This document shows, piece after piece, positions 18,117 through 36,638 of a DNA stretch of 64,000 nt. The stretch lies in the NCBI GenBank assembly GCA_040751795.1, contig JBFMHR010000005.1, forward strand, positions 64,001 through 128,000, in the 5' to 3' direction. A model generated the notes under the pieces. That model was not told the DNA's origin, ran no database searches, and saw only the letters and a program-made list of their open reading frames with translations. This DNA comes from Thermoplasmatota archaeon. GTDB taxonomy: Archaea; Thermoplasmatota; Thermoplasmata; UBA10834. The position numbers and the translations under genes are program-made. How positions within the stretch are numbered: position 1 is the stretch's first letter; each line of letters begins with the position of its first letter.

Positions 18117-19685
18117 TTAAAGCCTGACGTAGGTCGCGGACCTCAGGTCGGGTATGGCCCGGACCTTCTCCATGACCTCGGGGGGTATCCGGTCGTCGAT
18201 CTCGAGTATCATCACCGCGGGGCCGCGGGTCTGCCTCCTCGCGACCTCCATGCTGGCGATGTTGACGTCGTTGTCGCCGAGAACGGTGCCGACCTTCCCT
18301 ATCATGCCGGGCTTGTCCATGTGCGATATGAGCAGGAGGTCGCCCTCAGGGACGATGTCGACCATGTTGCCGTCTATCTCCACCAGCCTCGCGCCCTTGT
18401 CGGGCATGAGCGAGCCGGCGACGGAAGCGGCTATGCCGTCCGTGTGCATCGTCACCCTGATGAGGTTCTTGTACGGTCCGGCGTCCTCGGAGGTGGACGA
18501 CACTATCTCTATCCCCCTGGCCTTCGCGAAGGCGAGGGCGTTGATGTAGTTCACGGTCGTCTCGTCGGATATGGGCTTCAGGAGGCCCGTGACGACCGAC
18601 GCCGATATGATCCGCACGTCCTTCTGGGCCAGCTCGCCCCTGCACGACACCTCGACCCTTCCGGTCCCGGGCTTGCCCACCTGGCATATGAAGGTTCCGA
18701 GCTTCTCCGCGAGGGGCATGTACGGGATGATCTCCGGGTCGAGCTTGGCCGGGAGGTTCAGGGCGTTCCTGATGATGTTGTCCTTGATGTAGGCGATGAC
18801 CTGCTCCGCGATCTCCGAGCCGACGTCCTCCTGCGCCTCCTTCGTCGTGGCGCCCAGGTGGGGCGTGAGGACGACGCTGTCGAGGGTCAGCAGCCTCGAA
18901 CCCTTCGGCGGCTCCTCCGTGAACACGTCCAGGGCGGCGCCGGCGAGCCTCCCCTCGGCCAGCGCGTCGTAGAGGGCGTCCTCGTTGACGACCCCTCCCC
19001 TGGCGCAGTTGACTATCATGGCGCTCTTCTTCATCCTCGCCAGTTCGGGCCTGCCGAGCATGTCCTTCGTCTGCGGCGTCAGGGGCGTGTGCACCGTGAC
19101 GAAGTCCGCCTCCTCCAGGAGCCTGTCGAGCGTGACGAGCCTGACGTGGAGCCTCACGCCCACCTCCGGCGACACGAGCGGGTCGAAGGCTATGACCTTC
19201 ATGCCGAGGGCGGCCGCGCGCTTCGAGACCTCCGCGCCGACCCTGCCCAGGCCGACTATGCCCAGGGTCTTCCCGGCTATCTGGAGCCCCTTGAGCTCCT
19301 TCCTCTTCCACTCGCCCCTCTTGGTGGAGGCGTCCGCCTGCGGGATCCTCCGGGCGAGGGCGAACAGCAGCCCTATGGTTAGCTCCGCCGTGGAGACGAC
19401 GTTGCCGGACGGGGCGTTCATGACGAGTATGCCCCTCTCGGTGGCCGCGGCCAGGTCGATGTTGTCCACCCCTATCCCGGCCCTGCCTATGACCTTCAGC
19501 CTCGAGGCCTGTATGACCTTCCTCGTGGCCTTGGTGGCGCTCCTCACTATCAGGACGTCGTAGTCGCCGATGGCCTTGACCAGCTCGTCCTCCTTGAGCC
19601 CGAGCTTCACGTCGACCTTGTAGCCCTGGGCCTTCAGCATCTCGACGCCGCCCTTCGATATCTCGTCCGCGACGAGGACCTTCAT
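18117..19685 (-). CDS. serA: D-3-phosphoglycerate dehydrogenase (type I, with ASB and ACT domains)
   Basis: VRSATK, GRAGIGVDNID, GLGRVG, VNCARGG, TPHLGATT.EAQ, DKPGMIGKVG..LG...VNIA ACT domain. Confidence 0.95.
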   Translation of the reverse strand: MKVLVADEISKGGVEMLKAQGYKVDVKLGLKEDELVKAIGDYDVLIVRSATKATRKVIQASRLKVIGRAGIGVDNIDLAAATERGILVMNAPSGNVVSTAELTIGLLFALARRIPQADASTKRGEWKRKELKGLQIAGKTLGIVGLGRVGAEVSKRAAALGMKVIAFDPLVSPEVGVRLHVRLVTLDRLLEEADFVTVHTPLTPQTKDMLGRPELARMKKSAMIVNCARGGVVNEDALYDALAEGRLAGAALDVFTEEPPKGSRLLTLDSVVLTPHLGATTKEAQEDVGSEIAEQVIAYIKDNIIRNALNLPAKLDPEIIPYMPLAEKLGTFICQVGKPGTGRVEVSCRGELAQKDVRIISASVVTGLLKPISDETTVNYINALAFAKARGIEIVSSTSEDAGPYKNLIRVTMHTDGIAASVAGSLMPDKGARLVEIDGNMVDIVPEGDLLLISHMDKPGMIGKVGTVLGDNDVNIASMEVARRQTRGPAVMILEIDDRIPPEVMEKVRAIPDLRSATYVRL

Positions 19686-24336: not shown

Positions 24337-26736
24337 TCACTGGGTCGGCGGCGCCGGCGGCTCGGCCGGCGGGGCCGGCTCGGACTTCGTCAGGCCCGGT
24401 CCCCTCGTCTTCAGGAAGGGCACGACGATGAGCAGGAGGATCATCACTATGATGAGCACGAGCATCACGAAGTCTATCGCGCTCATCCCTATGACCTCCT
24501 TGTCCCAGCCGCTCTGGTCCGCCATGACCACGAAGTCGACGCCGTCGCTCGAGAGCCACGTGTTCTCGACGCCGTCGTACAGGGTCACCCATATGCCGTA
24601 GTAGCCGTCAGGGGTGTCCTCGGGCACCGTCACCGTGAGGGTGCCGGACGTGTCGTTGGTCAGGACGTACATGTCGATGTAGTCGGCGTACGAGTAGTAC
24701 CTGATCTTGTAGACCGACATGTGCGGCGCGCCGTTGGTCGTGATCTCGTAGCCGAACTCTATCTCCGCGCCGGGCTCGAACGCCCTGGACACGTACCCGG
24801 AGTCGCTGACGAGCCAGACGGAGATGGTGTACTCCTCCTCGAGCCAGACGCTCGACTCGGCCTCGACGTTGTTGCCCAGGCCGTCCTTGAGGGTCAGGGT
24901 CACAGTGTACTCGGTCGACGGGTCGCTGCCCGGCACCGTGAAGCTGATCATGCCGGAGGTCGCGAAGTCCATCGAAGAGGACGCGACCGGCTCGCCGCCG
25001 GCGTCCACGACCTCGTAGGAGAGCATGCCCGACGTCATCTCCGTCAGGATCTCGAACTCCCACTGGACCGTGTCGCCGCCGGAGTAGATCTCCGCTACCG
25101 GCGCTATGGCGATGTAGGCCTTCTGGACCCACGCGTCGTCCCAGGCGTCGAGGTAGTAGCCGTTCACTATGGTCACGGCCTCGATGTCGATCCAGCCGAC
25201 GTAGTCGTCGGGGACCGCGAAGCTGGCCTCGCCGGAGCTCGTGTTGCCGACCGCGACGTTGCCCAGGGAGCTGTACACGATGTAGAAGACCGAGTTGTTC
25301 TCGACCTCCTCCACGCCCCATACGGTCGTGAAGGTCACCGTGGCCGTCTCGCCGCTGTAGTACTGGTCCTTGTCCAGCTCAGCGTCGAGGTCGTACTCCA
25401 GGTCGATGTCGAACGTGGTCATCCTCACCACGGTGTAGCCGACCTTCGACATCGTCGCAGTGACGACGTAGGTCCCCGGGTCCGCGTCGGAGGCGAGCTG
25501 GAACTCGTGCTCCACGACGCCGTTGACGCCGGTCGTCAGGTCGGACGCGCCGTACGCGGCTATCGCGGCGCCGTCCTTCTCGACGACTATGTCCACGTCC
25601 GCCTCGGGCAGCGAGTACCAGTTGACCGTCGCCTGGGCGCTGACCACGACGACCTCGCCCGCGAGGTATGTGTCGTCCTCGGTCCAGACGTCGCCCATCA
25701 TGTCACCGGTGTAGAACGTTATCCAGGTCTCCATGCTCCTGTCGGCGGTGTCGTTCGCCCAGAAGTAGACGTCGTAGTCCGAGGTCAGGTTGATCTCGGC
25801 CGGGATCGTGAAGATCTCGGTGCCGAAGTAGCCTGGGACCAGCTCGCCTGTGTCGACCTGCAGGACGTTGGTCTCGTTGTACCACTCCGCGTTCCACTCG
25901 ACTGTCACATCGGAGTAGAGCGAGAGGGTGGCCATGTCGACCACCATGTACTCGACCTCGACGTTCTCGCCGGGCAGGACGTAGTACCTGTCCGTGTCGA
26001 GCATCAGGGCGTACTTGGCGACCCAGAACAGCTCGTCGAACCAGAGGGCGTCGGAGGTCTCGGCCCTCACCTCGATGAGGTACTCGCCGTCCTTGGCGTC
26101 CTCGGGTATGGTGAAGGTCTCGCTCCAGACGCCGTCCTCATCGACGGTCTGGTAGGTCCACGGCGGGACCATGTCGTCGTCCGTCTCGTTCAGGATCTGG
26201 ACGTAGAAGGCGTCGGTGTCCCCGGTCGTGACCGTTATGGTCACGTCCTGGCCGGGGTAGTAGTACCAGTCGTTCGGCGGGTCGAGGCTGAGCCCGGTCT
26301 CCTTCAGCACGATCTGCTCCCTGTCGACCTCGGTCCACCACCAGTAGTCCTCGACATAGAGGACTATGTCGCAGACGGTCATGTCCCCGCTTATGGGGAC
26401 CCCGTTGGTGTTCAGGGAGTCTATGGGGATCGCGGCCGAGCTGTTGTAGTACCCATCAACCGGGTCGTCAGTGGTAGTGTAGATGCTGTCCCTGACGTTC
26501 CCGTTCTCATCCACGAGCTCCACCAGTATGTCCGCGTCCACGAGCACGTTCTCGTAGTACAGCGTGACGTTCACATAGACGTGGTCTCCTCTGAAGAACA
26601 CGTCCATGGGCAGGCCCGCATCGTCTGTCGTCTGCACAGTGCCCGTGTAGTACACAGCACCCTTCGTCGGAAGGGCGGTGAACACGACGGCAATCATGCA
26701 CAGAGCCAGCGCTAAGCTCAAAATCTTGCCTTTCAT
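24337..26736 (-). CDS. Large acidic surface (S-layer-like) glycoprotein with tandem Ig/MG-like domains and a C-terminal membrane anchor
   Basis: Signal peptide; recurring (T)D...Y..G(E/D).V.V units; at least 9 N-X-S/T sequons; C-terminal TM helix and Pro-rich tail; strong TATA upstream. Confidence 0.8.
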   Translation of the reverse strand: MKGKILSLALALCMIAVVFTALPTKGAVYYTGTVQTTDDAGLPMDVFFRGDHVYVNVTLYYENVLVDADILVELVDENGNVRDSIYTTTDDPVDGYYNSSAAIPIDSLNTNGVPISGDMTVCDIVLYVEDYWWWTEVDREQIVLKETGLSLDPPNDWYYYPGQDVTITVTTGDTDAFYVQILNETDDDMVPPWTYQTVDEDGVWSETFTIPEDAKDGEYLIEVRAETSDALWFDELFWVAKYALMLDTDRYYVLPGENVEVEYMVVDMATLSLYSDVTVEWNAEWYNETNVLQVDTGELVPGYFGTEIFTIPAEINLTSDYDVYFWANDTADRSMETWITFYTGDMMGDVWTEDDTYLAGEVVVVSAQATVNWYSLPEADVDIVVEKDGAAIAAYGASDLTTGVNGVVEHEFQLASDADPGTYVVTATMSKVGYTVVRMTTFDIDLEYDLDAELDKDQYYSGETATVTFTTVWGVEEVENNSVFYIVYSSLGNVAVGNTSSGEASFAVPDDYVGWIDIEAVTIVNGYYLDAWDDAWVQKAYIAIAPVAEIYSGGDTVQWEFEILTEMTSGMLSYEVVDAGGEPVASSSMDFATSGMISFTVPGSDPSTEYTVTLTLKDGLGNNVEAESSVWLEEEYTISVWLVSDSGYVSRAFEPGAEIEFGYEITTNGAPHMSVYKIRYYSYADYIDMYVLTNDTSGTLTVTVPEDTPDGYYGIWVTLYDGVENTWLSSDGVDFVVMADQSGWDKEVIGMSAIDFVMLVLIIVMILLLIVVPFLKTRGPGLTKSEPAPPAEPPAPPTQ

Positions 26737-26896: not shown

Positions 26897-28138
26897 TCAG
26901 CGCTCGCAGTGGTCGTGGTCGTCCCTGTGCCCCGCTGTCGAGCGCATCTCCTCGATGTTCCCCCTGCTGAACGGGGACATCGCCCTGAGCTTGGAGATCA
27001 CCCCGGGCATGACCTCGAGGACGCGGTCCACCTCCGCCTCCGTGTTCCACCTGCCGAGGGTGAACTGCACCGCGCTCTGCGCCTCCTCGGTCGGTATGCC
27101 GCACGCTAGGAGAACGTGCGACGGGAGGAGGCTCTTGGAGGTGCACGGCGAGCTGGACGACACCGACACGCCCATCATGTCGAGGTTGAGGAGCATCGCC
27201 TCCCCCTCGACGAACTTGAACCGGAAGTTGGCGTTGTTGGGCAGGCGCCTCGTCGGGTGCCCGTTGAGGGCGGAGTCCTCGACGCGCTCGAGCATCCCCT
27301 TGACCAAGCGGTCCCTGAGGGCCGCGATCCTGTCGGCCTCGGAGGCCATCTCGCTCCTCGCTATCTCCGCGGCCGCGCCGAACCCGACGATGCCCGGTAC
27401 GTTCTCGGAGCCGGACCTGAGCCCGCGCTCCTGCCCCCCGCCCTGCTCGACGGCCTCGATCCTCGTGCCGTCCCGGACGTAGAGGGCGCCGACGCCCTTC
27501 GGCCCGTACATGTCGTTGGAGGAGAGGGACATGAGGTCTATGCCGAGCGCCTGCACGTCGACGGGGACCTTGCCCGCCGCGGGTGCGGCGTCGACGTGGA
27601 AGTAGACGTCCTTCTCCTGGAGGAGCTTCCCCACCTCTGCTATCGGCTGCAGGGTGCCGATCTCGTTGTTCGCGAACATGAGCGACACGAGCACCGTGTC
27701 CTTCCGGACCGCCCTCTCCAGCTCGGCGACGTCCACGGACCCGTCCCCCGTCGGGGGGACGAAGGTGACCTCGAAGCCCTGCTTCTGCAGGTACTTCATG
27801 ATGTTGAGGACGGAGATGTGCTCGATGGCGGAGGTGACTACGTGGTTCCCCTCCCCCTTCATGCGCATCGCGACCCCCTTGATGCCGAGGTTGCTCGACT
27901 CGGTCGCCCCGGCGGTGAACACGACCTCCTCCCTGCGCTTCGCGTTGACGAGCCTCGCGACGCTCGTCCTCGCGTCCTCGAGGGCCCTCTTCGGCTCCCT
28001 GCCCGCGCCGTGCAGGGAGGCGGGGTTCCCGTACCTCTCGGTGAAGTAGGGCATCATCCTCTCGAGCACCCTCGGGTCCACGGGCGCGGCGGCCGCGTGG
28101 TCCATGTAGATCCTCTTGGCTCCGGCAGCCTCGGTCAT
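26897..28138 (-). CDS. iscS: IscS/NifS-like class V PLP-fold protein with the PLP lysine replaced by Asp
   Basis: YGNPASLH, FTAGATES, SAIEH, NNEIGTLQP, GGGQERGLRSGSEN and catalytic-loop SSPCTS are present. SxHK reads SSND (DLMSLSSNDMYGPKG). Confidence 0.9.
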   Translation of the reverse strand: MTEAAGAKRIYMDHAAAAPVDPRVLERMMPYFTERYGNPASLHGAGREPKRALEDARTSVARLVNAKRREEVVFTAGATESSNLGIKGVAMRMKGEGNHVVTSAIEHISVLNIMKYLQKQGFEVTFVPPTGDGSVDVAELERAVRKDTVLVSLMFANNEIGTLQPIAEVGKLLQEKDVYFHVDAAPAAGKVPVDVQALGIDLMSLSSNDMYGPKGVGALYVRDGTRIEAVEQGGGQERGLRSGSENVPGIVGFGAAAEIARSEMASEADRIAALRDRLVKGMLERVEDSALNGHPTRRLPNNANFRFKFVEGEAMLLNLDMMGVSVSSSSPCTSKSLLPSHVLLACGIPTEEAQSAVQFTLGRWNTEAEVDRVLEVMPGVISKLRAMSPFSRGNIEEMRSTAGHRDDHDHCER

Positions 28139-28177
28139 GTCTCCTCCCTCCCTATTCCGCTTCACGGATGTAATGTC

Positions 28178-28552
28178 TCAGAAGGTCAAAACGGCATCGT
28201 ACTCGAGCACGAGGTCGTTCAGGGTCGCGGCGCCCACGACCTTCACGGGCGGCTCGAACTCCTCGGGCGAGGCCTTGGTCCCCCAGAGCTGCGCGCTCTG
28301 GGCGCAGGCGAACATCTCGACGCCCGCGGCCGCGGCCTGGTCCATGACCTCCTTGAGGCTGGGGAAGTCGCCCATCCTGACCTTCGCGGGCTCGCCCCTC
28401 CTCACGCCGAGGATCCCCTTCGCGAGGAAGTAGACCGCGGCGTCGACGCCCATGGCCTTCGCCGTGGACGCCAGTATGAACGGGGAGTAGAGCCTCTCGG
28501 GCGTGTCCGGTCCTGATGTCTGCACATAGAGTATCTTCTTCGCCAATTCCAT
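28178..28552 (-). CDS. DsrE/DsrF-like sulfur relay protein
   Basis: TSGP..PER...PF..A..A.AM, V.F...G, GVEMFACAQS (conserved Cys), VGAAT, VLTF*. Confidence 0.88.
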   Translation of the reverse strand: MELAKKILYVQTSGPDTPERLYSPFILASTAKAMGVDAAVYFLAKGILGVRRGEPAKVRMGDFPSLKEVMDQAAAAGVEMFACAQSAQLWGTKASPEEFEPPVKVVGAATLNDLVLEYDAVLTF

Positions 28553-28574
28553 CTCCTCCCTGAATGGTGCGGGC

Positions 28575-28829
28575 TCAGGTCGTCCGTCTGATCAGAAACC
28601 GGAACCCGCCGTCCCTCCTCTCGACGGAGAGGAGCTCGTGGCCCGCGTGCTTGGCCCAGCTCCTTATGTCGGAGTCGGAGGCTGGGTCGTCTGCCAGGAC
28701 TTCCAGGACCTGTCCAACCTGGACCATCGAGATTTCCTCTCTGGTCCTGAACACCGGTTCCGGACAGTAGAGACCGATGCAGTCGAGGGTCTTGGTGGGT
28801 CGGGGGAATCCTTCGCCTCTATCAGGCAT
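28575..28829 (-). CDS. tusA: TusA/SirA sulfur carrier
   Basis: LDCIGLYCPEP (CPxP), LEVLADDPAS..DI..WA...GH. Confidence 0.93.
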   Translation of the reverse strand: MPDRGEGFPRPTKTLDCIGLYCPEPVFRTREEISMVQVGQVLEVLADDPASDSDIRSWAKHAGHELLSVERRDGGFRFLIRRTT

Positions 28830-28860
28830 GACTTCTCCTGGCCGATCTGACAGACGACCT

Positions 28861-28893
28861 TACTACTAATAACAGCGTTACTAATAATCCTTT
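28861..28893 (-). promoter_or_regulatory. Promoter/operator of tusA-dsrE-iscS
   Basis: Exact 9-bp direct repeat TACTAATAA at 28864-28872 and 28879-28887, with a near-palindrome TAAC-AGC-GTTA between them. Confidence 0.5.
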
Positions 28894-28947
28894 CCGTTGA
28901 TATCAGTTACGCCTTGCCGTCGCGGGGGCATATCACAGCGTATAGCG

Positions 28948-29673
28948 TCAAGAAATGGTCATCGCGACCCTTCCCAACCTGCCCGCGAACCTCTTCGTGC
29001 CGAAGCCGACGCTCCTCTTCCTGAACGGGGCGGGGAGGTCGTCCGAGTGCCCCGTGGCGATCACCCTCAGCGCGGCGAGCCCGGTCGGCGTCGCCCTCTC
29101 CCCGGGGTGGTCCCCGGGCGTGTGCGCGAGCCCCCTCAGCAGGAAGGCGGCGGCGGGCGCGGGCACCCTGAAGGTGCCGTGGGACGTGGCCGTGACGCCG
29201 CGCCCGGTGGTGACGGTCGTGCACAGGACCTGCTCCCCCGGAGGGGCGACCATCGGCGCGACGAGCCCTATCCCCGCGATGTTCAGAAGCGCCTGAGGCC
29301 TCCCTATCTCGTGCAGGTGGACCTGCTCCGGCGGGAGGCCGTGCGCGTCCGACTCGGCCTCGAAGATCCGGTCGAGTATCCTCACGGCCACCTTGCCGTC
29401 CGAGCCCAGGAGCCGCGACATCGAAGAGACGGCCGAGTAGGCGTCGGCGTGGGACAGCGTCGGCGCGTGGTCCCCCCCCGCGACGTAGGAGACCGCGAGG
29501 CCTCTCTCTCCTTCCTCCTCGATCTCCGAGCAGTGGAACCCGACCCCGTGGGCGTCGGCGGCGCGTGACATCCTGCGGACGACGTCCTCCGACCGCTCGG
29601 GCTCAAGCAGCCCTATCGATGCGGCTAGGAGCATGTCGGCGGAGAGCCCCTCGCGGGCGTCGATGTGCAGCAC
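28948..29673 (-). CDS. larC: LarC-like nickel-insertion protein, N-terminal domain only, diverged
   Basis: D...G.S.DM.L.A, AE..AHG...E.VH.HE.G, HG...VPAPA...LL, E..TPTG.A.L, G.G.K.F motifs. It ends at 241 aa without the C-terminal domain. Confidence 0.8.
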   Translation of the reverse strand: MLHIDAREGLSADMLLAASIGLLEPERSEDVVRRMSRAADAHGVGFHCSEIEEEGERGLAVSYVAGGDHAPTLSHADAYSAVSSMSRLLGSDGKVAVRILDRIFEAESDAHGLPPEQVHLHEIGRPQALLNIAGIGLVAPMVAPPGEQVLCTTVTTGRGVTATSHGTFRVPAPAAAFLLRGLAHTPGDHPGERATPTGLAALRVIATGHSDDLPAPFRKRSVGFGTKRFAGRLGRVAMTIS

Positions 29674-29725: not shown

Positions 29726-30568
29726 TCACTGCTTGGCCTTGACCTTCCTGGTCTTGAGCTTCTTCTGCCTCAGCGCCGGTGCCGGCGACGGCACAGGTGA
29801 GGCCGCGGGCGGCGGGGCCGGCTCCCTCGCCTCGGCCGGCTCCTCCGCCGCCTCCTGCGGGACGGCCTCCTCGGGGGCGGGGGTGGGCTGCGGCTCGGGG
29901 ACGGGCTCGGGCTGGGGCGCAGGCTCCTGGACGGGCGCCTCGACGACGGGCTCGGGCACCGGCTCCGGCCTCGGCTCCTCGGCGGGCTGCACCGGCTCGG
30001 GCTGCGGCTGCGCCACGGGCTCCGGCTCCGCCTCGGGGACCCAGGGCTCCTGCCGCGGGGCCTCGGCCCGGGGCTCCTCCTTCGCCGGGGCGGCGGGCTG
30101 CTCCTCGGTCACGATGAACAGGGTGCCGCACTCCTCGCACCTGGCGGCGTCGGGCCTGACCAGGGCGGCGCACACGGGGCACTGGTAGCTGACGTCGTCG
30201 AGGAACCCGGCCCCGCACTTGGGGCACGTCTCCTCGGTCCCGTCGAGCATCCACGAGCACCGCGGGCAGCTCAGGCGCTTGTCCTCCTGCTTGACCTGGG
30301 CCGCCTCGAAGCTGATGATCTCCGTCAGGAGCATGTCTATGCTCTCCTCGGAGTGGGCGCGCTCCGTCCTCCGGCTGAACTCGGCGTATGAGACCCTGCA
30401 CGCCGGGCACCTCGGCGAAGTGGCGGGCACGAGCTCCCCGCAGAACGGGCACTCGAACCTGGTGTCGGGCCCGAACTTGGAGCCGCACCTCGGGCACGCC
30501 TCCTCCGAGCCGGAGACCCTGAACCCGCAGACCGGGCAGCCGAACAGTTGCTTCCTCTGGGTGGTCAT
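29726..30568 (-). CDS. Multi-zinc-ribbon protein with a Pro/Glu-rich linker and basic tail
   Basis: Eight CxxC motifs (CPVC, CPRC, CPFC, CPAC, CPRC, CPKC, CPVC, CEEC), then (EP)-rich low complexity. Confidence 0.85.
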   Translation of the reverse strand: MTTQRKQLFGCPVCGFRVSGSEEACPRCGSKFGPDTRFECPFCGELVPATSPRCPACRVSYAEFSRRTERAHSEESIDMLLTEIISFEAAQVKQEDKRLSCPRCSWMLDGTEETCPKCGAGFLDDVSYQCPVCAALVRPDAARCEECGTLFIVTEEQPAAPAKEEPRAEAPRQEPWVPEAEPEPVAQPQPEPVQPAEEPRPEPVPEPVVEAPVQEPAPQPEPVPEPQPTPAPEEAVPQEAAEEPAEAREPAPPPAASPVPSPAPALRQKKLKTRKVKAKQ

Positions 30569-32462: not shown

Positions 32463-34622
32463 ATGCGGCTAGCGTTGTTCATGAGCGTCATATTCTCGTT
32501 GGCCATAGTGCTGGCGGGACCAGTGCAGCCCACGCCGCCGGAGTCGCACGTCCAGAACGTCGTCGCCGAAGTCGCCGCCGACATAGACCAATCCGTCTCA
32601 GAGGTGGTGGTCGAGGTCGCAGGACCCGACGCCTACGACGCGGTCGAGTCGCTCGTGCTGTCGGGCGGCGCTTCGATCAGCTACTCGTCCAGGGCGACCG
32701 GGATCATGTCCGTCTCCATGGACGGCGCCCGTGAGGGCCTGGTCGACGAGATCTCCGCGGTCCAGGGCGTCGTCAGCGTCTCCCCCGAGAGGAAGGCGCG
32801 GCTGCTCTTCGACCCGGACGACCCGTGGACCTCCTACCAGTGGGCGCTGGACGAGGTCGAGGCATATGACGCGTGGGACATCGACCTGGGCAGCCACGAC
32901 GTCATCGTCGCGGTGCTCGACACGGGCATAGACTGGAACCACGCGGACATCTCCCCCAACATCTGGTCCAACGGCGACGGCTACCACGGGTACAACTTCA
33001 TCGACGACAACTGGTTCCCCATGGACGACAACGTCAACGGCTACGACGAGAACGGGGACTGGGTCGCCAACATGTACACCTACCACGGGACGCACGTCGC
33101 GGGCGTGGTCGGGGCCGCCACCGACAACGGCATAGGCATGGCGGGCCTGGCCCAGGTCCGCCTGATGGCCGTGAAGGTGATGAACGACTCCGGCGAGGGG
33201 ACCGACTCCACCGTCGCGAGCGGGATAAGGTGGGCGACGGACAACGGCGCCCACGTCATAGTCATGAGCCTCGGCGTCGAGGGAATCTCCCTGCCCCTGC
33301 AGAACGCCGTCAACTACGCCGCCAGCAGGGGGGTCGTCCTGGTCGCCGCCGCGGGCAACGACGGGACCAGCGTCCTCAGCTACCCGGCCGCGTTCCTGAA
33401 CGTCATCGCCGTGGGCGCGATAGACGACACCGAGCGCAGGGCGAGCTTCAGCAACTTCGGCACCGAGCTGGACGTCGTGGCCCCCGGCGTGAACATCTAC
33501 TCCACCCAGGGCGGCGGGAGCTACCAGTACCTGTCGGGCACATCCGCGGCCGCGCCGCACGTGGCGGCCGTGGCCGCCCTCATGCTCACCGTGAACCCGG
33601 CCCTCACCCCCGAGGACGTCGGGCAGATCATCAACGAGACCGCGAACGACCTGAGCATCCCCGGCTGGGACACGGGCACGGGGTGGGGCGTCGTGAGCGC
33701 CTTCGGGGCGATAGAGGCGGTCGCGGACCCGACCGTGACCATCACGGACTTCCCGGAGTACGTCGAGCCGAACGGCACCTATTCGATCACATGGCTCGTG
33801 AGCGGGGGCGACCCCGGCACGATCACCGACACGTACCTCCAGTGGGGCTTCGCCTCCGGCGACGTCGACGGGACGTCGGGCTCCTTCTCCGGCACGACCT
33901 GGGCCGAGTTCACCGTCGAGGGGCTGCCCTCCCTCCCGGGCAACGGGACGATCTACCTCACCGCCTTCGCGGTCGTCGACGGGACCACCTACTCCTCGGA
34001 GGAGCTGGAGATACCCGTCATGGAGGCCCCGGACGACAACCTCTTCATGCAGTTCATCCGGGACGTCCAGGACTTCATATTCGACGAGCTGGGGGTGTTG
34101 AACTTCCTCCTCATCATGTGCGTCCTCGTCGCCGTCCCGGTCATAGCGGTCGTGGCCAGGTCGAGGAGCCGCAGGCTCGCCGCCGCGAGGGCGAGGGCCG
34201 AGGCCGTCAGGCTGGCCCAGGCCCGCTCGACCCTCGAGGGGTACCAGCAGGTCCAGGGGGGCCCGCGCCTCCCGCCGCCACCGCCCCCGCCGCCGAGGTT
34301 CGAGGCGTACGTGGACATCGTCGGCTCGAACGTCGTGCCGCAGGTCGTGAAGGTGGTCGAGGGGACCAAGGTCGTGTGGGTGAACAGGACCTGGGCCCCG
34401 CCGCCCGGCTCGAGCGTGAAGAGCGGGACGGTCGACGCCTCGGGGGAGCACCACGACGGCCTGTTCTCGAGCGGCCTCCTCATAGCGCCGGGGGACTACT
34501 GGAGCTGCACCTTCCACAGGGCGGGCGAGTACCCCTACTACCTCACGAACGTGTGGAGGTCGGGAACTGTGATTGTGGAACGATATAGAGACTCCCCGCA
34601 ATCGAGTAGTCCTGACGCCTGA
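32463..34622 (+). CDS. Membrane-anchored subtilisin (S8) protease with a C-terminal cupredoxin-like domain
   Basis: Signal peptide, propeptide, AVLDTG / HGTHVAG / AAAGN / GTSAAAPHVA, TM helix, poly-Pro, then a plastocyanin-like beta pattern. The ORF track starts it at 32412. Confidence 0.9.
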   Translation: MRLALFMSVIFSLAIVLAGPVQPTPPESHVQNVVAEVAADIDQSVSEVVVEVAGPDAYDAVESLVLSGGASISYSSRATGIMSVSMDGAREGLVDEISAVQGVVSVSPERKARLLFDPDDPWTSYQWALDEVEAYDAWDIDLGSHDVIVAVLDTGIDWNHADISPNIWSNGDGYHGYNFIDDNWFPMDDNVNGYDENGDWVANMYTYHGTHVAGVVGAATDNGIGMAGLAQVRLMAVKVMNDSGEGTDSTVASGIRWATDNGAHVIVMSLGVEGISLPLQNAVNYAASRGVVLVAAAGNDGTSVLSYPAAFLNVIAVGAIDDTERRASFSNFGTELDVVAPGVNIYSTQGGGSYQYLSGTSAAAPHVAAVAALMLTVNPALTPEDVGQIINETANDLSIPGWDTGTGWGVVSAFGAIEAVADPTVTITDFPEYVEPNGTYSITWLVSGGDPGTITDTYLQWGFASGDVDGTSGSFSGTTWAEFTVEGLPSLPGNGTIYLTAFAVVDGTTYSSEELEIPVMEAPDDNLFMQFIRDVQDFIFDELGVLNFLLIMCVLVAVPVIAVVARSRSRRLAAARARAEAVRLAQARSTLEGYQQVQGGPRLPPPPPPPPRFEAYVDIVGSNVVPQVVKVVEGTKVVWVNRTWAPPPGSSVKSGTVDASGEHHDGLFSSGLLIAPGDYWSCTFHRAGEYPYYLTNVWRSGTVIVERYRDSPQSSSPDA

Positions 34623-34708
34623 TATCGAGTTCTATCTTGAGTACTGTCCAGATTCGAGAGTCACACATCTGGAGCAACTATGCGGCTTCTTCTATCACCT
34701 CAATCCAC

Positions 34709-35644
34709 TTACTGACCCGGCTCCCAAGTGAATCTGGAAGTGATGGTATCGCACCTTGAACAAGGAGAGAGGTTTCTTCTGCCATTCGTATTCAATTCGT
34801 TTCTGATCCTCGCTAGCTGTTTCCCTCTCCAGATATCGATCATTGTCTCTTTGTTCATATCGCCAACGATGTTCTCATAATAGACATCATTGCAGCAAAT
34901 ATGGACGAGTCCAGAGGAATTGACATTGAATTGTCTGAATGGCCAACTGCACCATCTCTTCTGCGTTATCCAATCATCAACTCTCCATGTACTCTCTCCC
35001 AACCTGTTGGGTGCATTTCCTCCGCGCCTCGTCAGTCTTGCATTCTTGTCCCTGAGCTGAAAGACAATCGTCAAATCCTTTTCAATCTGAGTTCCGCGGA
35101 TATCTGAGAGCAATTGCTGCATTCTCGCGCTCATCTTCATGTCATCGGTATAGTCATTTATTCGCAGCAATGCCTTGCCATTCAGTCCATTGGAGTAAAG
35201 CTCAGTGAGCTTGTCAAAGTCGAGTAGTATGCCATTGGTCCATACCCCAATGCCTGCATGTGGTAAGTTCATCCTGATCTCGGATATGAACGACGCCATC
35301 CTTGAATCTAGCAGGGGTTCATTGTTATGGAACGGGTATATCCATCCCGTGTATCTGAGTTGCTTAAGTTGCCTCACTATCTCTGAGAATATCTCCTCCT
35401 TTAGATGGATGGGTTTCCGCTTATCAACATGCATATTTGCCGGGCAAAATGCGCAATCATTGTTGCATCGATTGAAGGTCTCAATCTCCACATGGTTGAA
35501 CAGAGGTGGATCATAGGGATTCCAGTTGCATGAATTCCTCTTAATCTCGCCGTGAACTGTGACTGCCAGTTCGGATATGAGGGGGATGTGATATCTCTTG
35601 AAGTAATGGAATGGTTGTTGCGTCTCGATTACCGTCACCGGCAA
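34709..35644 (-). CDS. Radical SAM/SPASM-domain protein on a low-GC islet
   Basis: CNNDCAFC, NEPLLD, TNG.LL, CSWPF...CCND...CSRC. Confidence 0.9.
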   Translation of the reverse strand: MPVTVIETQQPFHYFKRYHIPLISELAVTVHGEIKRNSCNWNPYDPPLFNHVEIETFNRCNNDCAFCPANMHVDKRKPIHLKEEIFSEIVRQLKQLRYTGWIYPFHNNEPLLDSRMASFISEIRMNLPHAGIGVWTNGILLDFDKLTELYSNGLNGKALLRINDYTDDMKMSARMQQLLSDIRGTQIEKDLTIVFQLRDKNARLTRRGGNAPNRLGESTWRVDDWITQKRWCSWPFRQFNVNSSGLVHICCNDVYYENIVGDMNKETMIDIWRGKQLARIRNELNTNGRRNLSPCSRCDTITSRFTWEPGQ

Positions 35645-35795
35645 GGCTATCAGATCCGTTCTCCCTTGCCAATGCCGTCCAGGTCTATGGATTTTGTGAT
35701 TGCCTGATACACGGGCACAGTTCGATTCCAGTGGCAGACGCCATCAAATGCATAAGATGGGTGGCTTCTGAAAACCATGTAAGAAGATTTGGGAA

Positions 35796-35933
35796 GTGAG
35801 CCCGCGCCCCGGGTCTGGACGCCTCCGAGCGCCTCGACGGCCGCGCAGACGAACGCTCGCGGTCGCCTGTGACGGGCCTCTGTCAGGGCCGCCTCGGCGC
35901 CTTTCAGCCTCCTTCGCTGGGATGCGGGCTCAC
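35796..35933. repeat. 138-bp GC-rich segment bounded by inverted repeats
   Basis: GTGAGCCCGCGCCCC (35796-35810) and GGGATGCGGGCTCAC (35919-35933): 10-bp perfect, 13/15 overall. Confidence 0.5.
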
Positions 35934-35948
35934 CTCATTTTGTTTCGG

Positions 35949-36638
35949 TCACTTCCCGGACTGGACCTTGCCGTCCTGGCCGCCGTTGCACTCGCCGTTC
36001 TGCTCGCCTCCGGACTCGCCCTCCTCGGCAGTGTCGTCATCCTCGGGCTCGTCCTCGTAGTCGCAGTCAGCCGGCTCGTCCTCGGCGTCCTCGGTGGATG
36101 ACTGGTGGTCCTCGGAGTGCATCTCGCAGTTCTGCTGCTCAGAGCCTGCGTTGCGCTCGCGGTGCCTCCAGCAGTTCCCGTTCTGTTCCCCGTTGCCCTC
36201 CTGCTCGTCGTCGTCCTCGTCCTGGTCGTCGTCGCCCTCATCGTCATCGGCGTCGTCGTCATCGTCGGACTGGTCGTCGTCATCGTCGTCGGGGACCTCG
36301 TCGTCCTGCTCATCGTCATCCGGCAGCTCGTCGTCGTCCGATCCCTCGTCATCGTCTCCGTCAGGAACCTCGTCGTCGGATGTGTCGTCCTGGTCTCCGT
36401 CCGTCGTGTCGTCAGAATCGGACGTGTCGTCGGAGGAGCCGTCAGTATCGTCAGAAGAGGAATCGTCGTCGGCGGTGTCGTCCTGGCTGTCGTCGGGCAG
36501 TTGGTCATCCGCAGGGGGCGGGTCGATGTTGATGTCGGGCTTGTCATCGCCACCTATCAACGATACGACTAGCACCGCGGTAATGATGAGCGCGGCGCTG
36601 GCCACCACTGTGGTGCGCAACCTCTTGCTTAATCTAAT
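35949..36638 (-). CDS. N-anchored, extremely Asp-rich low-complexity protein
   Basis: Hydrophobic N-terminal helix then DD-x repeats. GGAGGTGA lies 4 nt before an in-frame ATT (36638); the ORF track uses TTG 36620. Confidence 0.75.
   Translation of the reverse strand: MRLSKRLRTTVVASAALIITAVLVVSLIGGDDKPDINIDPPPADDQLPDDSQDDTADDDSSSDDTDGSSDDTSDSDDTTDGDQDDTSDDEVPDGDDDEGSDDDELPDDDEQDDEVPDDDDDDQSDDDDDADDDEGDDDQDEDDDEQEGNGEQNGNCWRHRERNAGSEQQNCEMHSEDHQSSTEDAEDEPADCDYEDEPEDDDTAEEGESGGEQNGECNGGQDGKVQSGK

Follow-up and report, generated by a model that had tools for sequence, protein, structure and literature searches.

A tusA–dsrE–iscS gene module with an IscS paralogue that lacks the pyridoxal phosphate lysine: a candidate reversed sulfur relay in a Thermoplasmatota archaeon and its relatives

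The stretch of DNA analysed here (the window) comprises 64,000 nucleotides from a Thermoplasmatota archaeon, positions 64,001 to 128,000 of contig JBFMHR010000005.1 (hereafter C45, so that the window is C45:64001-128000) in a 2.05-Mb, 92.8%-complete assembly (GCA_040751795.1). On its minus strand lie genes for a TusA-type sulfur carrier, a DsrE-family sulfur carrier and a paralogue of the cysteine desulfurase IscS, here called IscS(Asp), in which aspartate replaces the lysine that forms the Schiff base with pyridoxal phosphate (PLP). IscS(Asp) falls in one clade with the crystallised IscS2 of Archaeoglobus fulgidus, and the members of this clade have a replaced PLP pocket, a conserved loop cysteine and, at nearly all of the genome-derived loci sampled, a tusA gene upstream. 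We regard it as an evenly balanced proposition that the module is a PLP-independent persulfide relay leading from TusA/DsrE to the IscS cysteine and on to an iron–sulfur (Fe–S) or metal–sulfur target, with sulfur moving, we infer, in that direction. The original prediction for this locus had cast IscS as a sulfur/metal scaffold, and the remodelled pocket and invariant loop cysteine described below fit that role better than the role of a desulfurase.

28575..28829, minus strand: tusA, TusA-type sulfur carrier, 84 amino acids
28178..28552, minus strand: dsrE, DsrE3-like sulfur carrier (putative), 124 amino acids
26897..28138, minus strand: IscS paralogue without the PLP lysine, IscS(Asp), 413 amino acids from the ATG at 28138
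27512..27514, minus strand: GAC codon of Asp209, which takes the place of the Schiff-base Lys (SSND), read directly
27143..27145, minus strand: codon of loop Cys332 (SSSPCTS), candidate persulfide- or cluster-ligand cysteine, position computed from the ATG at 28138

The length of 413 residues from this ATG is also that of the database entry for IscS(Asp), and an alternative in-frame GTG start at 28165 (26897..28165, a 422-residue open reading frame, ORF) was judged less likely. The gene order, the motifs (SSND, DAAP, SSPCTS, HRDDHDHCER, ACAQS and CPEP) and the 39-bp gap between dsrE and iscS that had been described for this locus were all recovered base for base.

Loss of the PLP pocket

The sequence around Asp209 reads tcc tcc aac gac atg tac ggg ccg aag ggc (S-S-N-D-M-Y-G-P-K-G), and the same protein carries HVDAAPAAGK (with Gln changed to Pro) and SSSSPCTS before ending in HRDDHDHCER. 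Asp stands at the Lys position in all 120 of the closest database homologues, which share 72–100% identity and are named as Thermoplasmata or Thermoplasmatota metagenome-assembled genomes (MAGs); the motif is SSND in 97, SAND in 22 and SSSD in 1. Since all 120 share the Asp, it is neither a chance substitution nor a sequencing error, and the prediction, which would have suffered had close orthologues kept the Lys, stands in this respect (0/120 retain it). The loop motif SSSPCTS is likewise found in 120/120 close homologues, and Cys332 is invariant in a 26-sequence alignment of IscS(Asp), as are His107 and Asp183.

The change at position 209 is part of a wider pattern. We compared 110 Asp/Glu-type with 86 Lys-type homologues at the positions that are at least 85% conserved in the Lys-type (window numbering), and seven of these positions, T17, T18, A109, Q186, H208, K209 and R358, are replaced in the Asp/Glu-type. 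Ala109 has become Ser, Gln186 has become Ala or Pro (Ala in 93/110 of the clade, Pro in the window), His208 has become Asn in 109/110, Lys209, present in 86/86 Lys-type homologues, has become Asp, and Arg358 is replaced by Leu, Gln, Val or Met. In Escherichia coli IscS the counterparts of this Gln, His and Lys are PLP contacts, and the Arg holds the carboxylate of the substrate. With the Schiff-base Lys and the other residues of the PLP/cysteine pocket replaced, IscS(Asp) should be unable to make persulfide from cysteine, and the pocket pattern appears to be that of a protein under selection for something other than PLP chemistry.

Profile matches agree with a conserved fold and an altered active site. 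The Aminotran_5 profile (PF00266, 4.9e-75) is covered from position 1 to 371 of 371, as expected of the class-V aminotransferase fold, and matches to IscS and NFS1 structures in the PDB range from 1e-105 to 1e-135. Scores nonetheless lie below the NCBIfam equivalog cut-offs for NifS (TIGR03402, 499.7 bits versus 530.75), IscS (TIGR02006, 434.5 versus 643.2) and PRK14012 (441 versus 548). Among the hallmarks of group I cysteine desulfurases, IscS(Asp) lacks the Schiff-base Lys in S-x-H-K, the Gln of DAxQ, the His preceding the Lys and the substrate Arg, and keeps the catalytic Cys of the mobile loop.

A single clade shared with Archaeoglobus fulgidus IscS2

The best solved match of IscS(Asp) is A. 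fulgidus IscS2 (4EB5, E 3.1e-135, residues 20–401 of the 422-residue ORF), which aligns as ...tiSSNDiYGPKGV; other entries for this protein are 4EB7 and 4HVK, and 4R5F is its D199K variant, reading SSNK. The statement in the original prediction that the A. fulgidus protein has the same Lys-to-Asp change was thus correct. We placed these sequences in a FastTree phylogeny of 203 homologues, drawn from relatives, 80 GenBank-titled loci, 30 loci taken from 301 genomes sampled from the phylum to which a Methanoperedens genome belongs, and 60 full-length metagenome sequences. All 110 Asp/Glu-type sequences, the window sequence among them, form one pure clade with support of 0.999, and outside it stand the 86 Lys-type sequences and seven with Gln, Met or Leu. 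Selection by motif brought in 60 of the Asp sequences, which inflates their number and leaves the purity of the clade unaffected.

Other IscS lineages without the Lys also exist, given that 14 of the 150 nearest 50%-identity cluster representatives lack it (with various residues in its place) and just 3 of these 14 have Asp. Two MAG loci (L083 and L087, from Methylomirabilota and Rokuibacteriota) represent one such lineage, with TAHM and TAHL motifs and the stacking His changed to Gln; here the Lys-less IscS lies directly before iscU, a Lys-bearing IscS follows about 4.5 kb downstream on the same strand, and there is no tusA nearby. Five bacterial IscS homologues outside the Asp clade (L079, L105, L117, L118 and L077) have Gln for Lys (AGDQ, AGNQ, AGSQ, SAQQ and SGHQ), and in one of these (L118, Actinomycetota) dsrE is directly upstream of the Gln-type IscS.

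Three Archaeoglobus-like genomes (G068, G215 and G172) bring the clade close to the crystallised protein. Their loci L244, L248 and L265 match 4EB5 with 777, 760 and 678 bits over 382 residues, the first two IscS proteins being near-identical to it, and all three read tusA–dsrE–iscS(Asp)–iscU. The strong IscS/SufS-type matches in these genomes are solely Asp-type (1, 2 and 1 copies), and with IscS and SufS as queries their remaining class-V proteins stay below 41 bits; G215 is a 2.2-Mb genome with all matches on one contig, and G068 has only 1.4 Mb. As no Lys-bearing IscS or SufS occurs among the strong matches, TusA in these genomes would not be loadable by a classical IscS/SufS desulfurase. 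The A. fulgidus IscS is itself described as lacking desulfurase activity because of the Lys-to-Asp change (PMC7585200), and in the structure of its (IscS-IscU)2 complex the IscS Cys ligates a [2Fe-2S] cluster on IscU (PMC7585200; PMC13066941).

Linkage to tusA, dsrE and iscU

The original prediction had set SSND-type IscS linked to tusA/dsrE against linkage to iscU. In loci derived from genomes, taken without motif selection and with tusA scored upstream on the same strand, linkage to tusA separates the types sharply:

Asp/Glu-type IscS: 50 loci, tusA upstream in 47
Lys-type IscS: 84 evaluable of 85 loci, tusA upstream in 0
IscS with another residue: 7 loci, tusA upstream in 0

Two of the three Asp/Glu-type exceptions (L036 and L255) are without tusA outright and the third (L246) is cut by a contig end after dsrE, and one Lys-type locus (L072) has tusA after iscU. 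A scan of metagenomes with the back-translated motif S-[SA]-N-D-x-x-G-P-K-G-[VA]-G-A-L yielded at least 80 loci with up to 2 kb on each side. Among the matches listed, tusA is upstream in 52 of the 59 loci with at least 330 bp of upstream sequence, iscU is downstream in 55 of the 66 with at least 420 bp of downstream sequence, and dsrE is present in 20/49; the 60 full-length proteins in the same list form 19 clusters at 70% identity. The 39 listed loci that could be evaluated on both sides divide as follows:

tusA and iscU: 18 loci
tusA, dsrE and iscU: 11 loci
iscU only: 5 loci
tusA and dsrE, no iscU: 4 loci
tusA only: 1 locus

The predicted linkage of SSND proteins to tusA is therefore strong, in genomes and metagenomes alike, whereas the contrast with iscU falls away: most lineages carry both, including the close relatives of the crystallised A. 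fulgidus protein. Taxa with the module include Thermoplasmatota, Bathyarchaeia (5 loci), one Nitrospinota bacterium and the Halobacteriota sample, and iscU is immediately downstream in 18/19 Asp-type loci of the latter versus 0/21 loci of the window's family. In that family, where 25 genomes (the window's own among them) yielded 21 loci with a full-length orthologue, tusA, dsrE and iscS(Asp) occur together in every one of these loci and iscU in none. The module with both tusA-[dsrE] and iscU is the form found in most lineages, and that of the window is a derived, IscU-less variant.

The sulfur carriers

Both small proteins keep the cysteines of their families. TusA matches PF01206 with 86 bits (1.6e-24; cut-off 28.6) and has its best PDB match in E. 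coli TusA, chain C of the IscS–TusA complex 3LVJ (2.1e-14). Its Cys22 is encoded at 28764-28766 (CPEP, in ...LYCPEPV...), and Cys22, Pro23, Pro25 and a DDP motif are invariant in 26/26 module TusA proteins; since the score against the NCBIfam TusA model (NF001423) is 68.7 with a cut-off of 78, the protein is a member of the TusA family and no equivalog of E. coli TusA. DsrE matches PF02635 with 72.3 bits (5e-20; cut-off 22.7), and its Cys83, encoded at 28304-28306 (...FACAQSA...), is invariant in 21/21 module DsrE proteins, which are very conserved, with a mean column identity of 71% across phyla. Its best PDB match is 3MC3 (6e-13), where faCaqs aligns with yvCvqs, Cys on Cys, and from this fold match and the alignment of the active-site Cys with the DsrE3A structure we take it to be DsrE3-like. 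3MC3 is the DsrE3A protein SSO1125, and archaeal DsrE3A is described as an established thiosulfonate carrier; proteins of the DsrE3A and TusA types pick up sulfur from inorganic polysulfide and hand it from one cysteine to another (PMC11094781). Prediction of a complex between IscS(Asp) and TusA from alignments gave scores of 0.13 and 0.08 (mark 0.32), which are evidence neither for nor against binding.

The variant of the window's family

The family to which the window belongs forms a subclade of the tree in which iscU is not adjacent, the loop reads SSSPCTS and IscS(Asp) carries a conserved extension at its C-terminus:

26900..26965, minus strand: C-terminal extension (...NIEEMRSTAGHRDDHDHCER), conserved MRSTAGHR motif and His/Cys-rich end

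The extension reads ...EEMRSTAGHR followed by a His-rich end, which includes Cys in the window's genus; MRSTAGHR is present in 115/120 close homologues, and in 118/120 the final 14 residues include three or more His. Loss of iscU and gain of this tail go together among the metagenome matches listed, a downstream iscU being missing in 8/10 proteins with His-rich tails versus 3/56 with plain ones. From this co-occurrence, the tail may stand in for an acceptor or metal site or may serve to recruit one.

Three metagenome loci (L164, L138 and L196) form a small sister group of the window's family, with tusA–iscS(Asp), without dsrE and without iscU, and their proteins end in a plain tail (...LRDMSPLTPDTLKD). 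This group may be an intermediate between the IscU-linked and the His-tailed forms.

Other desulfurases, scaffolds and carriers in the genome

The original prediction had called for a search for a second, Lys-bearing desulfurase, and the genome indeed has one. An ordinary IscS (SAHK, DAVQ), here called IscS(Lys), is encoded at C34:133025-134260 with IscU directly after it (C34:132658-133089; NifU_N match 132670-133032), and a divergently placed SufS-like gene (SAHK) is also present. IscS(Asp) is therefore an extra paralogue and not the only IscS of this genome. A second NifU_N protein is encoded at C45:18124-18978 (NifU_N match 18148-18492), and with both NifU_N matches of the genome lying outside C45:64001-128000, the window has no iscU, as had been stated.

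Separate from the module, the genome has a second tusA with a run of several DsrE-family genes behind it (C34:200700-202400), a cluster that from its gene content resembles a TusA–DsrEFH/TusBCD-type relay. About 45 kb upstream of the window (C45:15000-22000), ORF translations point to a cluster of Fe–S or metallocluster type, with genes for two P-loop MinD/Mrp-like ATPases, two small NifX/NafY-like proteins, the NifU_N scaffold, and DsrE-family and DUF134-like proteins. This cluster may hold an acceptor scaffold for the IscU-less module.

Proposed mechanism

We propose that IscS(Asp), a member of an ancient single clade with a replaced PLP/cysteine pocket and a retained mobile-loop Cys, would serve as a scaffold. 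TusA (through Cys22), aided by the DsrE3-like carrier (through Cys83), would be loaded with sulfane sulfur from sulfide, polysulfide or another donor, and would dock on IscS(Asp) in the manner of E. coli TusA on IscS. Sulfur would then move to Cys332 and from there to a scaffold protein, which ancestrally and in most lineages would be the IscU encoded directly downstream, the IscS Cys also acting as a ligand of the nascent [2Fe-2S] cluster. In the window's family the iscU gene would have been uncoupled and the His/Cys-rich extension gained, and this extension probably binds metal and replaces or recruits the acceptor.

Several points weigh against this proposal. The Lys-bearing IscS–IscU pair and the SufS-like gene mean that TusA in the window's genome could be loaded classically, as in E. 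coli. The locus of the window, being without an adjacent iscU, does not name the acceptor, and neither a rhodanese (PF00581) nor a YeeE transporter (PF04143) was found in the genome, which at 92.8% completeness does not show their absence, so that no upstream sulfur donor is named either. TusA is not obligatory, given that 3/50 genome loci and 7/59 listed metagenome loci are without it upstream, and the counts overstate the independence of the loci because 24/50 come from one class and 21/50 from one family. Binding and the direction of sulfur flow, like the origin of the sulfur and the function of the tail, are read from motifs, homology and gene linkage. Finally, Yamanaka et al. 2013 reportedly found some function of the A. 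fulgidus protein with added PLP.

Alternative explanations

Sulfur might instead run in the classical direction, which we consider unlikely. IscS(Lys) or the SufS-like enzyme would load TusA/DsrE, for tRNA thiolation, the molybdenum cofactor or similar ends, and IscS(Asp) would be a dead paralogue that does no more than regulate or partition the flow, perhaps by sequestering TusA or by pairing with IscS(Lys) in heterodimers. The window's genome has the enzymes that this would take, as do 20/21 module-bearing genomes of the family, to judge by a second match of about 50–55%, and no other sulfur-loading enzyme (rhodanese or YeeE) was found in the genome; in E. coli, TusA is reported both to receive sulfur from IscS and to modulate it (PMC13066941). 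The three Archaeoglobus-like genomes, however, carry the module without a Lys-bearing IscS/SufS among their strong matches, the unvarying Cys of the loop and the IscU that usually lies downstream suggest that the sulfur or cluster site is functional and the protein more than a decoy, and the separate tusA and DsrE-family cluster on C34 is already available for classical relays.

Somewhat less probable again is a pure scaffold, in which IscS(Asp) would give its Cys as the fourth cluster ligand on IscU and free sulfide would enter directly, TusA/DsrE serving to buffer or detoxify sulfane sulfur or acting in a co-regulated pathway. That the A. fulgidus IscS Cys ligates [2Fe-2S] in a protein described as without desulfurase activity (PMC7585200; PMC13066941) accords well with it. 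Yet the linkage to TusA is very specific (47/50 versus 0/84), directly upstream and kept across phyla, the module TusA is of the IscS-binding E. coli type, and the window variant has kept TusA and DsrE while losing the adjacent IscU, the opposite of what an IscU-centred role predicts.

The upstream neighbour of tusA in the window raises a further possibility, specific to this family:

28948..29673, minus strand: larC-N, LarC N-terminal-domain-only protein, 241 amino acids, upstream neighbour of tusA

This protein matches positions 1-224 of 375 of the Ni_insertion profile, so that the LarC2 C-terminal domain of a two-domain LarC is missing. It is the only LarC homologue in the genome, where LarE (293 bits, cut-off 150) and a Lar_N protein are also present; the short form is the rule in the window's family and its sister family f2, and full-length LarC was seen in one relative of the class only (G031). 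The gene is upstream of tusA in 15/21 family loci (three of four genera), two others being cut by contig ends and four having a zinc-ribbon gene instead, and in 5 metagenome loci among the matches listed. The module could thus supply sulfur to LarE, and its His-rich tail nickel to the larC-N protein, for the nickel-pincer nucleotide (NPN), a role for which the coincidence of the His-rich tail and the lost IscU adjacency with the larC-N neighbourhood speaks. We hold this to be highly improbable. Genus g4 keeps tusA–dsrE–iscS(Asp) with the His-rich tail, and no LarC homologue was found in any of its five genomes; family f2 has larC-N in genomes that showed only Lys-type IscS–IscU; a 118-bp AT-rich gap separates larC-N from tusA; and synteny inside one family is perhaps just inherited. 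Genus g4 also weakens larC-N as an obligatory part of the system, and larC-N is possibly associated with the module and not required for it; with g4 and f2 as they are, the nickel-pincer link is possible but weak.

Least probable of all is a residual enzyme that would bind PLP non-covalently, slowly desulfurate cysteine and hand the sulfur to TusA: the fold, His107 and Asp183 are kept and one A. fulgidus study reportedly bears the title 'unusual L-cysteine desulfurase', but the replacements across the clade extend beyond the Lys to Gln186, His208, Arg358, which binds the substrate, and the Thr-Thr near the N-terminus. A later study concluded that there is no desulfurase activity (as related in PMC7585200).

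Gene layout and genomic context

Transcription on the minus strand would run from larC-N over the 118-bp gap to tusA, then after 22 bp to dsrE and, 39 bp from the dsrE stop to the iscS ATG, to iscS(Asp). Ribosome-binding sites of the GGAGG type precede all 3 starts of the module, that of iscS lying 5 nt ahead of its ATG, and among the three genes only tusA has an AT-rich stretch upstream:

28830..28947, minus strand: AT-rich intergenic region, putative promoter of the three-gene unit, 118 bp

This region contains the strings attattagtaa and ttattagtagtaa, and the surrounding genome region has 64–68% G+C. From the tight spacing, the ribosome-binding sites and the AT-rich region, we read tusA, dsrE and iscS(Asp) as a single transcription unit. 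Among RNA data, no run contains half of the words of the stretch, and two metatranscriptome runs contain small shares. One metatranscriptome contig (X20, 187 nt, 0 differences, 28656-28842) covers tusA, a second (X19, 332 nt, 14 differences, 28518-28849) spans the tusA–dsrE junction, and a 180-nt piece of iscS is also covered, although many short matches at 27473-27700 stem from other IscS genes. These contigs are consistent with expression in relatives, and as contigs from RNA libraries they prove neither transcription nor a single transcript.

Up to about 12 kb away in both directions, the neighbouring genes (surface proteins, sugar-nucleotide enzymes, a serA-like gene, BacA and a subtilase) offered no functional link to the module, and no hdr-like genes were found near it in the window. 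Directly downstream of iscS (24337-26736, minus strand) is a gene for a 799-residue, very acidic surface protein with a signal peptide, a C-terminal membrane anchor and weak MG2/A2M-like domain matches, and upstream of larC-N (29726-30568, minus strand) is one for a 280-residue protein with multiple zinc ribbons and a Pro/Glu/Ala-rich tail. The G+C content of the window is about 0.61–0.69 over the first 42 kb, with a local dip to 0.55 at 34-36 kb (34001-36000), and 0.48–0.53 from 42 kb to the end (42000-64000); the shift might mark a foreign island or integrated element, or else a place where the MAG contig was joined chimerically.

Comparison with known systems

The nearest known relative is IscS2–IscU of A. 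fulgidus, which shares with the window protein the SSND motif, a DAxx motif without Gln, the loop Cys and membership of the Asp clade, and whose relatives have tusA–dsrE directly upstream. In the A. fulgidus type, iscU is immediately downstream, the tail is short (...RLRSMSPLYRR) and the loop reads GSACSS, whereas in the window iscU is not adjacent, the loop of IscS(Asp) reads SSSPCTS and the protein is extended by 20 residues rich in His/Cys; a Lys-bearing IscS–IscU accompanies it in the window's genome, and none is among the strong matches in the Archaeoglobus-like genomes examined. The IscS–TusA (3LVJ) and TusA–TusBCD relay of E. coli has the most similar TusA, with the CPEP Cys and an ADDPA motif, and an IscS partner beside DsrE-family carriers. 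E. coli IscS, however, is an active PLP enzyme from which sulfur passes to TusA, whereas the window IscS has no PLP pocket, and in place of TusBCD the window has a single DsrE3-like protein, with the three genes in one putative operon. The DsrE3A–TusA carriers of sulfur-oxidising archaea (Metallosphaera and Saccharolobus; 3MC3) are closest for DsrE, with the Cys aligned and tusA adjacent, but they sit in sHdr clusters, whereas the partner in the module is an IscS paralogue, usually with IscU.

The minimal iron–sulfur (MIS) system of anaerobes, reportedly defined by Garcia et al. 2022, is likewise a two-gene system of IscS-like and IscU-like proteins (MisS–MisU). It has been described as the least studied system (PMC13066941), and the accounts of it consulted, as far as they go, mention neither a Lys-less subclade nor TusA/DsrE partners. 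Already known are the A. fulgidus IscS with its Lys-to-Asp change, the structures of that protein and the Lys-less IscS1 of Methanosarcina acetivorans (PMC7585200). We found no description of a tusA–dsrE–iscS(Lys-less) module in the literature searched, which did not cover Garcia et al. 2022 or the TusA review of Tanabe, Leimkuehler and Dahl 2019; nor did that literature contain the monophyly and pocket signature of the clade, the near-constant pairing with tusA or the IscU-less, His-tailed family, of which a prior mention is possible.

Implications for Fe–S cluster assembly in anaerobic archaea

How strict anaerobes obtain sulfur for Fe–S clusters without a cysteine desulfurase is a long-standing question that touches methanogens, Archaeoglobus and the 'minimal' ISC/MIS systems, and for the crystallised, inactive A. 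fulgidus IscS with its IscU, the accounts consulted, in so far as they cover it, name no sulfur donor. Here we observe that its Lys-less clade is almost always encoded behind TusA and often with a DsrE3-like carrier, also in close relatives of the crystallised protein itself. One immediate use of this is in annotation: SSND, the loss of Gln, His, Arg and Thr-Thr, and a tusA upstream form a signature for genes that are now named 'cysteine desulfurase'. Going further, and tentatively, since we hold it somewhat more probably wrong than right, tusA-(dsrE)-iscS(Asp)-iscU might represent an ancient and widespread, PLP- and cysteine-independent entry of sulfur into Fe–S clusters, with sulfane sulfur from sulfide or polysulfide running 'backwards' from TusA/DsrE3 via the IscS loop Cys to IscU; in a further form, evolved by the window's family, the His/Cys-rich tail would take on the part of acceptor or metal site. 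The relay hypothesis is concrete and can be addressed with four small proteins (TusA, DsrE, IscS and IscU). If true, such a reversed route would explain how clusters are built in A. fulgidus and in many anaerobic archaea, some of them without a Lys-bearing desulfurase.

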